Of a DNA stretch of 8,346 bases, positions 6,013 to 8,346 are shown piece after piece. This DNA is from a virus (lineage: Duplodnaviria; Heunggongvirae; Uroviricota; Caudoviricetes), in the IMG/VR virus record IMGVR_UViG_2602041549_000008. One strand, 5' to 3'. Made by a program: the position numbers and the translations under genes. Numbering within the stretch: the first letter of the stretch is position 1; every line of letters starts with the position of its first letter. Under the pieces are notes generated by a model that had not been told where the DNA came from, did not search any database, and saw nothing but the letters and a program-made list of their open reading frames with translations.

Positions 6013-7110
6013 TTAGAACTGGTAAACCAGACCTACAGCAACGATGTCATCAGTGCTTACACCGAGTGCTTTAGTGAAGTCATTTTTGTCAAGCAGGTTG
6101 ATTTTGTAATCAACGAAAGTAGACATATTTTTGTTGAAGTAATAGGTTGCACCTACATCAACATATTTGACTAAGTCCTGATCGCCCCATACTCCAAGAT
6201 CCTTACCTTTAGATTGCAGGTAAGCAACGGACGGACGCAGACCGAAATCGAACTGATATTGTGCAACAGCTTCGAAGTTTTGAGCTTTATTAGCAACGAA
6301 GTGATCAGCAAATACAGTCATATTCTGGGTTTCAGAATAGGTAGTGGCCAGGTAAATGTTGTTAGCGTCATATTTCAGACCTGCGGCCCAAACTTCTGCA
6401 TTTTTACCGGAAGCAAATACTTCAGGAAGAACTTTCCCTGCATTAACTTGAGTGTCGGTACGATCAGATTTCGCATAAGTTGCACCGATACCGAACCCTT
6501 CGTATTCATAGGTAGCAGAGAAACCGAAGCCATCACCGTTACCTTCGGTGTAGTTATCGAAATCGCTACGATCGTTTTTGCCTTGGTACTGAGCAGCAAA
6601 GTTCAGACCATCAACCAGACCAAAGAAGTCGTTGTTACGATAGGTTGCAACACCAGTGGTGCGACCAGTCATGAACACATCTGTTTGGGTCCAGGTATCG
6701 CCACCGAATTCTGGCAGTACGTCAGTCCACGCACCGATGTCGTATGCTACACCGTAGTTACGGCCGTAATCGATTGAGCCGTAGTCACCGAATTTCAGGC
6801 CTGCAAATGCAAGACGGGTTTTGTCTTTGGAGGAACCTTGAGATTCAGCGCGGTTGCCTTTGAATTCATATTCCCACTGACCGAAACCAGTCAGTTGATC
6901 GTTGATTTGGGTTTCACCTTTGAAGCCAAGACGGGCATAAGTAGTATCACCATCATCTGCATCATTAGAGGAGAAGTAGTGCTTAGCATTAACTTTCCCG
7001 TACAGATCCAGCTTGTTACTGTCTTTATTATAAATTTCAGCTGCCTGAGCAGACATCGCCATCAGTACTGATGCAGCTACAGCAGAAATTGCCACTGTTA
7101 ATTTTTTCAT
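6013..7110 (-). CDS. nmpC: General diffusion outer-membrane porin of the OmpC/OmpF/PhoE/NmpC (Lc) family, 365 aa precursor, apparently intact
   Basis: The - strand ORF has an N-terminal signal peptide [23 protein letters not shown] then the mature start [17 protein letters not shown], typical of enterobacterial porins. It ends in ...VGLVYQF, the conserved C-terminal Phe of beta-barrel outer-membrane proteins. The ORF-track start at 7170 adds 20 residues; the internal ATG at 7110 gives the canonical signal peptide. Confidence 0.9.
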
Positions 7111-7536: not shown

Positions 7537-7570
7537 AAACCCGCCGTCGAGCGGGTTTTTCCATTTTTTG
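7537..7570 (+). terminator. Strong Rho-independent terminator on the + strand, about 130 nt upstream of the holin gene
   Basis: AAACCCGC-CGTCGA-GCGGGTTT hairpin (stem 7537-7544 / 7551-7558, GC-rich core) immediately followed by TTTTTCCATTTTTT. Confidence 0.6.
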
Positions 7571-7697: not shown

Positions 7698-7913
7698 ATG
7701 AAATCCATGGATAAGTTAACAACGGGTGTCGCCTATGGCACCTCAGCAGGTAGTGCCGGTTACTGGTTTTTACAGCTGCTCGATAAAGTCACGCCCTCAC
7801 AGTGGGCAGCAATAGGTGTGCTGGGTAGCCTGGTATTTGGCCTGCTGACGTACCTGACAAACCTTTATTTCAAGATTAAAGAAGATAAGCGCAAGGCTGC
7901 GAGAGGTGAATAA
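7698..7913 (+). CDS. essD: Class II holin (phage 21 S-type pinholin), 71 aa, with dual-start motif (Met1/Met4)
   Basis: ATG 7698 preceded by GAGGTGGGG. The product [71 protein letters not shown] has two TM segments (Gly/Ala-rich TMD1, hydrophobic TMD2) and a charged C-tail. Met1 and Met4 (7698/7707) mirror the antiholin/holin dual start of phage 21 S. The stop overlaps the next start (TAATG). The ORF-track start at 7653 is an extension. Confidence 0.88.
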
Positions 7914-8310
7914 TGCCTCCATCATTACGAAAAGCCGTTGCTGCTGCTATTGGTGGCGGAGCAATTGCTATAGCATCAGTGTTAATCACTGGCCCAAGTG
8001 GTAACGATGGTCTGGAAGGTGTCAGCTACATACCATACAAAGATATTGTTGGTGTATGGACTGTATGTCACGGGCATACAGGAAAAGACATCATGCTCGG
8101 TAAAACGTATACCAAAGCAGAATGCAAAGCCCTCCTGAATAAAGACCTTGCCACGGTCGCCAGACAAATTAACCCGTACATCAAAGTCGATATACCGGAA
8201 ACAATGCGCGGCGCTCTTTACTCATTCGTTTACAACGTGGGTGCTGGCAATTTCAGAACATCGACGCTTCTTCGCAAAATAAACCAGGGCGATATCAAAG
8301 GCGCATGTGA
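7913..8310 (+). pseudogene. rrrD: SAR (signal-anchor-release) endolysin, phage 21 R-type lysozyme, interrupted after about codon 132 by an IS2-like end
   Basis: ATG 7913. The N-terminal Gly/Ala-rich SAR segment is [20 protein letters not shown]. Catalytic-triad positions as I recall for R21 are present (E35, D44, T50 in [22 protein letters not shown]). From 8311 the frame runs into an insertion-sequence terminus (...GACD then [11 protein letters not shown]) instead of the expected lysozyme C-terminus. Confidence 0.75.
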
Positions 8311-8346
8311 TGGATTTGCCCCTATATTTCCAGACATCTGTTATCA
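8311..8346 (-). mobile_element. Terminal inverted repeat of an IS2-like (IS3-family) insertion sequence, partial; element body lies beyond the window end
   Basis: TGGATTTGCCCCTATATTTCCAGACATCTGTTATCA matches my recollection of the IS2 right-end inverted repeat read as its reverse complement. The junction falls inside the endolysin reading frame. Confidence 0.7.

Follow-up and report, generated by a model that had tools for sequence, protein, structure and literature searches.

The lysis region of the CE516 prophage

The stretch of DNA analyzed here (the window, 8,346 nt at its full length) forms the terminal 8346 nt of scaffold KI543976.1 (15,268 nt) in assembly GCA_000496995.1 of E. coli CE516. 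This strain is an ETEC isolate of ST1490 from Beijing, whose 101-nt Illumina reads were assembled into 99 scaffolds (PMC4415261). The succession of quuD, a porin gene, essD, and rrrD along the window matches the gene context of the prophage DLP12. An intact 365-aa NmpC/OmpC-type porin is encoded on the minus strand between quuD and essD (positions 6013-7110); the exact protein is extremely widespread, being found in 17,985 blocks of the protein collection. Between the porin gene and essD, a GC-rich terminator-like hairpin precedes a T-run (7537-7558, plus strand), in a position that fits a tR' terminator overridden by the QuuD antiterminator, an ordinary feature of lambdoid late operons. Scans of the window with Rfam and for tRNA genes gave no matches.

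The first gene of the lysis cassette, essD (7698-7913, plus strand; 14620-14835 in the scaffold coordinates of L012), encodes a class II holin of the phage 21 S type with 71 aa and a PF04971 domain. The exact protein is on record under the name EssD, and the gene is annotated as essD in the matching genomes. The rrrD open reading frame starts at 7913, where it overlaps the essD stop codon (TAATG), and translation and comparison with intact alleles assign the first 398 nt of the gene (codons 1-132 and two bases of codon 133) to positions 7913-8310 on the plus strand. Residues 1-133 encoded in the window are 100% identical to the R protein of phage 21. The 3' end of the window reads ...GGCGCATGTGA up to the border between rrrD and the insertion sequence IS2, and TGGATTTGCCCCTATATTTCCAGACATCTGTTATCA beyond it.

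Scaffold KI543976.1 terminates at position 8346, with no further CE516 sequence 3' on that scaffold; the CE516 assembly therefore cannot be extended past the window, and IS2 is represented by 36 nt only. Short-read assemblers commonly stop tens of bases into a multicopy insertion sequence or another repeat, and the CE516 assembly would likewise have broken inside the repeat, so that the scaffold and the window both stop 36 nt into IS2. Draft contigs that end tens of bases into an insertion sequence signal an insertion with its far side on another contig.

The junction between rrrD and IS2

Positions 8311-8346 were identical at 36 of 36 nucleotides to the outer part of the published 41-bp right inverted repeat (IRR) of IS2, the bottom strand of which reads 5'-[TGGATTTGCCCCTATATTTCCAGACATCTGTTATCACTTAA]-3' (PMC3299598). 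The same 36 nt constitute the beginning of a complete 1331-bp IS2 in E. coli STEC384 (L001 4289-5619), a copy with a 5-bp duplication (ATGGG) on its flanks and the annotation 'IS3-like element IS2 family transposase'. Among the 5,426 complete E. coli genomes, 3,101 contain an identical IS2 end, at 10,715 places in total, with a median of 2 and a maximum of 29 copies per IS2-bearing genome, and the expectation for an exact match of a 36-mer by chance is ~1e-14. The IRR starts with 5'-TGG at the element tip, and all of its 41 bp are present in a sister contig (L017, see below). The visible part of the CE516 copy is without differences from the IS2 of E. coli (IS3 family, IS2 group).

The outer 36 nt of the IRR occupy 8311-8346 on the minus strand and IS2 is inverted relative to rrrD; its transposase genes would lie past the end of the window, on the minus strand, as they do in L017. 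IS2 is a 1331-bp member of the IS3 family that carries a 42-bp left inverted repeat (IRL) at its other end, generates a 5-bp target-site duplication, and encodes in orfA and orfB a transposase with a DDE (rve) domain, which involves a programmed -1 frameshift. On the grounds of sequence identity, the assignment of 8311-8346 to the right end of IS2 is confirmed.

Uninterrupted rrrD genes from thousands of genomes are 100% identical to the window as far as 8311 and differ from it thereafter; the first mismatch is located at gene nucleotide 400, or window position 8312. The T at 8311 is common to native rrrD (GAT/CAG) and the IS2 tip. The sequence-only reading had placed a reversed IS2 right end from 8311 onward, a coordinate that is right by the definition of the element. 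It had also proposed that IS2 interrupts the endolysin gene, and this agrees with a break after codon 133 of 165, with 32 codons (134-165) beyond it.

One argument for regarding 8311-8346 as a divergent but native part of the endolysin gene, with no more than a resemblance to IS2, is that the frame stays open through 8346. This reading is already refuted by the alignments: besides the complete identity to the IRR, the segment has 26 mismatches to intact rrrD among the 35 positions 8312-8346, the Pfam homology ends at residue 135, and the sister contigs run on into IS2 orfB.

The predicted product of a simple insertion (RrrD residues 1-133 followed by 58 IS2-derived residues, 191 aa) was used as an exact protein query. 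The identical 191-aa fusion protein is on record from assembly GCA_029362105.1, on contig JAOYGR010000059.1 (L017), which shares the junction and is identical to the window at all but 2 of the 8310 upstream positions. Beyond the junction, this contig runs through IS2 for 1107 nt, over which the STEC384 copy differs at 3 positions, as anticipated by the sequence-only reading, and its minus strand encodes a 301-aa orfB product with HTH_21, rve, and rve_3 domains, with a partial orfA upstream of orfB. The junction recurs in a further assembly, GCA_000806275.1 (L018), which is 1 SNP away from the window and enters IS2 for 68 nt. It is common to at least three assemblies, with one further similar place listed by the search, and the idea of a strain-specific event has to be modified accordingly to a lineage-specific one. 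BLAST searches of the 5,426 complete E. coli genomes did not find the junction and matched only neighboring or unrelated IS2 sites. Scans for the exact rrrD-IRR junction also gave zero matches in the GTDB species representative genomes and in the JGI metagenome contigs.

The location of the junction at the extreme end of a short-read scaffold could raise the suspicion of an assembly artefact, namely a chimeric contig end formed from reads mis-joined at a repeat. Such an origin is extremely improbable and already effectively refuted by the presence of the same junction in three separately deposited assemblies that are 1-2 SNPs apart. Moreover, a chimera formed at random would not join precisely at the last nucleotide of IS2, where the break is located here, and a stop tens of bases into a repeat is normal for short-read assemblers. 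Because the sister assemblies, with 1-2 SNPs over 8310 nt, carry the identical junction, we concluded that it is genuine, supported by reads from independent data sets, and inherited within a lineage. The allele is already contained in public assemblies under the label 'lysozyme RrrD, partial'.

Comparison with the sister contigs also showed differences in neighboring prophage genes. A C in place of A at window position 2429 is private to CE516 and results in a Q18P substitution within the predicted signal peptide of YbcL (FSAQAAA to FSAPAAA). Codon 18 of ybcL encodes Q in both L017 and L018, and the Q18P variant was found on a single contig in a collection of 15 billion proteins. Outside the window on the same scaffold (L012 6645-6921), the product of the emrE-like gene upstream of ybcK is predicted to have 92 aa in CE516 and 110 aa in L017 and L018, which may reflect another small lesion or a start-codon difference.

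Predicted effects on the lysis cassette

Intact RrrD is identical at 165 of 165 residues to R of phage 21, the SAR endolysin of PDB 3HDE. The truncated product retains the weakly hydrophobic N-terminal signal-anchor-release (SAR) segment (residues 1-133 equal those of phage 21 R; PDB 3HDE/3HDF), and its translation includes the catalytic triad E35-X8-D44-X5-T50, corresponding to the E-X8-D-X5-T motif (PMC9239132). The Phage_lysozyme domain (PF00959) was detected in the truncated product with 119.7 bits against a curated cut-off of 22.3; the match covers positions 3-104 of the 125-position profile, compared with 3-125 in the intact protein, and the C-terminal part of the fold (residues 134-165) is absent. 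After the insertion, the rrrD frame comprises 133 native codons and 58 IS2-derived codons, the latter antisense to IS2 orfB, before it reaches a stop codon. The resulting 191-aa product is without the last 32 residues of RrrD, among them those that correspond to the final 21 positions of the lysozyme profile. Relative to R21 and the DLP12 RrrD of K-12 (GH24; PDB 3HDE, 3HDF, 4ZPU), the CE516-type protein keeps residues 1-133 of R21 with the SAR segment and E35, D44, and T50, whereas the native C-terminal 32 residues of R21 give way to 58 residues derived from IS2.

Although the catalytic residues are kept, the 191-aa product is likely misfolded or inactive, because about one-fifth of a small single-domain fold is lost. 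Inactivation of rrrD by the insertion can thus be reasonably inferred from the predicted protein, and the lysis cassette of the prophage appears to be crippled. The DLP12-like prophage of this ETEC lineage is probably unable to lyse the cell with its own endolysin. For annotation, the 144-aa 'lysozyme RrrD, partial' at the scaffold end is best read as a pseudogene disrupted by IS2 and not as a cut-off gene.

The outward-facing -35 element of IS2 is located in the IRR, where it contributes to Pjunc, the promoter of the minicircle, which must have a spacer of 17 bp, as well as to fusion promoters such as that of ampC (PMC9330008, PMC3299598). The Pjunc spacer is composed of 16 bp of the IRR and a 1-bp junction spacer, and the known promoter in the IRL points into IS2 (PMC3299598). 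Given the 17-bp Pjunc spacer and TAGACT of the IRL as the -10 element, the outward -35 of the CE516 copy is predicted to be TGGAAA at 8327-8332 on the minus strand. The creation of a fusion promoter at ampC by IS2 was reportedly described by Jaurin and Normark in 1983, and IS2-created fusion promoters are also known at acrEF and neoR.

The sequence-only reading had raised the possibility that an outward-facing IS2 promoter affects the downstream Rz/Rz1 genes, and this part of it did not hold. The CE516 junction likewise has the outward -35 in the IRR, but IS2 is oriented there opposite to the direction needed for Rz/Rz1 activation, and the flank is without a usable -10. Because the IRR adjoins the 5' part of rrrD, its outward direction follows the minus strand, in antisense through rrrD and essD, and leads away from Rz/Rz1. 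At spacings of 16, 17, and 18 bp from TGGAAA, the rrrD flank offers TCACAT, CACATG, and ACATGC, respectively, which are poor candidates for a -10 element. A consensus scan detected no promoter-like sites in this flank. The end of the element facing Rz/Rz1 would be the IRL, and no consensus promoter reading out of IS2 in that direction was found. A fusion promoter between the IRR and its flank is therefore not predicted, and the idea that IS2 activates Rz/Rz1 through a promoter was rejected on account of the orientation and the absence of promoter-like sites.

Other effects on the downstream genes can be envisaged. Because rzpD overlaps the rrrD stop codon by 4 nt in intact loci, and no start codon lies in frame into the rrrD 3' fragment after the predicted insertion, the residual rrrD fragment would no longer be translated, nor would its translation be coupled to the overlapping start of rzpD. 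Polarity across ~1.15 kb of untranslated IS2 antisense RNA is possible, and termination would be less effective in late transcription modified by Q. For Rz/Rz1, the overall outcome is expected to be neutral or polar/negative, not activating.

The far side of the element and IS2 at other rrrD-type genes

The break in rrrD coincides with the terminal nucleotide of IS2, as transposition yields, and the complete IS2 copies analyzed are flanked by the 5-bp duplications ATGGG (L001), GCGCA (PKF8), CAATT, CCAGA, CCTGT, and ACCGT. By analogy with these duplications, the 5-bp target site in CE516 is predicted to be TGTGA at window positions 8306-8310. In an ancestor of CE516, IS2 (IS3 family, 1331 bp) would have transposed into rrrD of a DLP12-like lambdoid prophage at this target (gene nucleotides 394-398), in an orientation in which its transposase genes run opposite to the lysis cassette. 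If the insertion is simple, a second copy of TGTGA is expected at the IRL end, which would join TGTGATCAGCTACG (rrrD nucleotide 394 onward); the IRL would be followed by TGTGA-TCAGCTACGTCGC, that is, by the remaining rrrD and then rzpD, and the far junction would read ...GGAGATTCAGGGGGCCAGTCTA/TGTGA/TCAGCTACGTCGCTGG.

The three contigs with the CE516-type junction all end inside IS2, the longest after 1107 nt, and none of them includes the far side of the element (the IRL, the second TGTGA, the rrrD 3' part, and rzpD/rzoD). Exact-pattern scans for the predicted IRL-TGTGA-rrrD junction gave zero matches in the GTDB representative genomes and the JGI metagenomes. The small ORFs predicted across this junction are absent from the protein collection, a look-up that is uninformative.

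As all three contigs end in IS2, the element could instead mark a larger rearrangement, in which IS2-IS2 recombination, or a deletion or inversion mediated by IS2 next to itself, eliminated the rrrD 3' end together with the downstream Rz/Rz1 and late genes or moved them elsewhere; the C-terminal codons would then be truly gone and not just displaced. IS2 ends, of which an IS2-bearing genome has a median of 2 and a maximum of 29, are substrates for such recombination, and comparable complexity is found in PSJ-16, where rrrD contains, 8 bp from the CE516 site, a truncated IS2-like element with a second insertion sequence inside. Nevertheless, we consider a rearrangement to be quite unlikely: of the eight other IS2 or IS2-like copies in or next to rrrD-type genes that were inspected end to end, seven are complete (1330-1331 bp) with perfect 5-bp duplications, as in simple insertions, and the window itself gives no hint of a deletion. 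A simple insertion of the 1331-bp IS2 at TGTGA in rrrD, crippling the lysis cassette of the DLP12-like prophage in the ancestor of ETEC CE516, is very probably the correct explanation. The roughly 30 terminal codons that the sequence-only reading described as replaced correspond to the 32 codons beyond the break, and these are most likely displaced by 1.3 kb and not replaced.

Complete E. coli genomes were further searched for IS2 within ~570 nt of the site with four chimeric queries, each combining 60 nt of rrrD with 80 nt of an IS2 end and together representing both orientations and both sides. In the window-like orientation, the downstream query matched 4 genomes and the upstream query 15 genomes (two records belong to strains listed twice); in the opposite orientation, the downstream and upstream queries matched 3 and 6 genomes, respectively. 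The sum of 28 corresponds to ~26 distinct genomes, since PKF8 and PSJ-16 were each found with both window-like queries. Copies of IS2 that hit or neighbor an rrrD-type gene are thus scattered over many positions and face either direction. Among the inspected copies, those of the five strains PKF8, 400660, PK8566, PK6, and LD39-1 lie inside the rrrD-type gene. In PKF8, an IS2 isoform with 95.7% identity is flanked by GCGCA (rrrD nucleotides 389-393; L013 2532-2536), 5 bp upstream of the CE516 site and in the same orientation.

The nine strains PKF8, PSJ-16, 400660, PK8566, PK6, LD39-1, CFSAN061772, EPSSH018, and STEC384 share with CE516 the insertion of the same element, or of its 95.7%-identical isoform, at the same gene family, and their complete copies show 5-bp duplications. 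In contrast, the positions and the prophage context differ (a trkG-adjacent prophage, as opposed to DLP12 in CE516), and the CE516 site at nucleotides 394-398 is shared by no complete genome. Truncation of a prophage endolysin gene by IS2 is ordinary, recurrent prophage decay by a well-known insertion sequence, an event of an already known kind that matters little beyond annotation. Our literature search found no paper naming rrrD together with IS2.

It is conceivable, but in our view rather unlikely, that rrrD-type genes are a genuine preferred target of IS2, or that insertions in them are retained by selection for disarming prophage lysis; if so, prophages would be domesticated time and again by IS2 at this one gene. 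A tight hotspot at 8306-8310 as the sole explanation was rejected, given the many positions and both orientations of IS2 around rrrD. Guidance of the insertion by a resemblance of the rrrD target to the IS2 inverted repeat was likewise discarded: ~10 of 36 positions match by eye when aligned in register from the insertion point, which is the level of chance, and the similarity in a MAFFT alignment is out of register.

At a finer scale, two sites in the rrrD-type gene were each hit twice. The sequence CAATT (rrrD nucleotides 336-340) is duplicated around IS2 copies of opposite orientations in 400660 and PK8566 (L019 545-549/1881-1885 and L020 546-550/1881-1885), and CCAGA (rrrD nucleotides 248-252) was similarly hit in opposite orientations in PK6 and LD39-1 (545-549/1881-1885 in both L021 and L022). 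The re-use of CAATT and CCAGA by unrelated strains suggests that these are preferred IS2 target sites within the gene. Non-random insertion of IS2 is known, for example, from hemB and from a hot target in phage P1 (cited in PMC3299598), and the re-use of sites is a side observation, not a new phenomenon.

Three independent insertions of IS2 or IS2-like elements, in PKF8, CE516, and PSJ-16, fall in the same orientation within 13 bp (window 8301-8318), that of PSJ-16 being located after rrrD nucleotide 406 (L014 about 2549). The elements of PKF8 and PSJ-16 belong to the diverged IS2 isoform and reside in the different, trkG-adjacent prophage. The PSJ-16 element (L014 2550-4658) represents a nested insertion: within the IS2-like sequence lies a second, complete IS2-type copy of 1331 bp, which is inverted relative to it and flanked by the duplication ATCAG.
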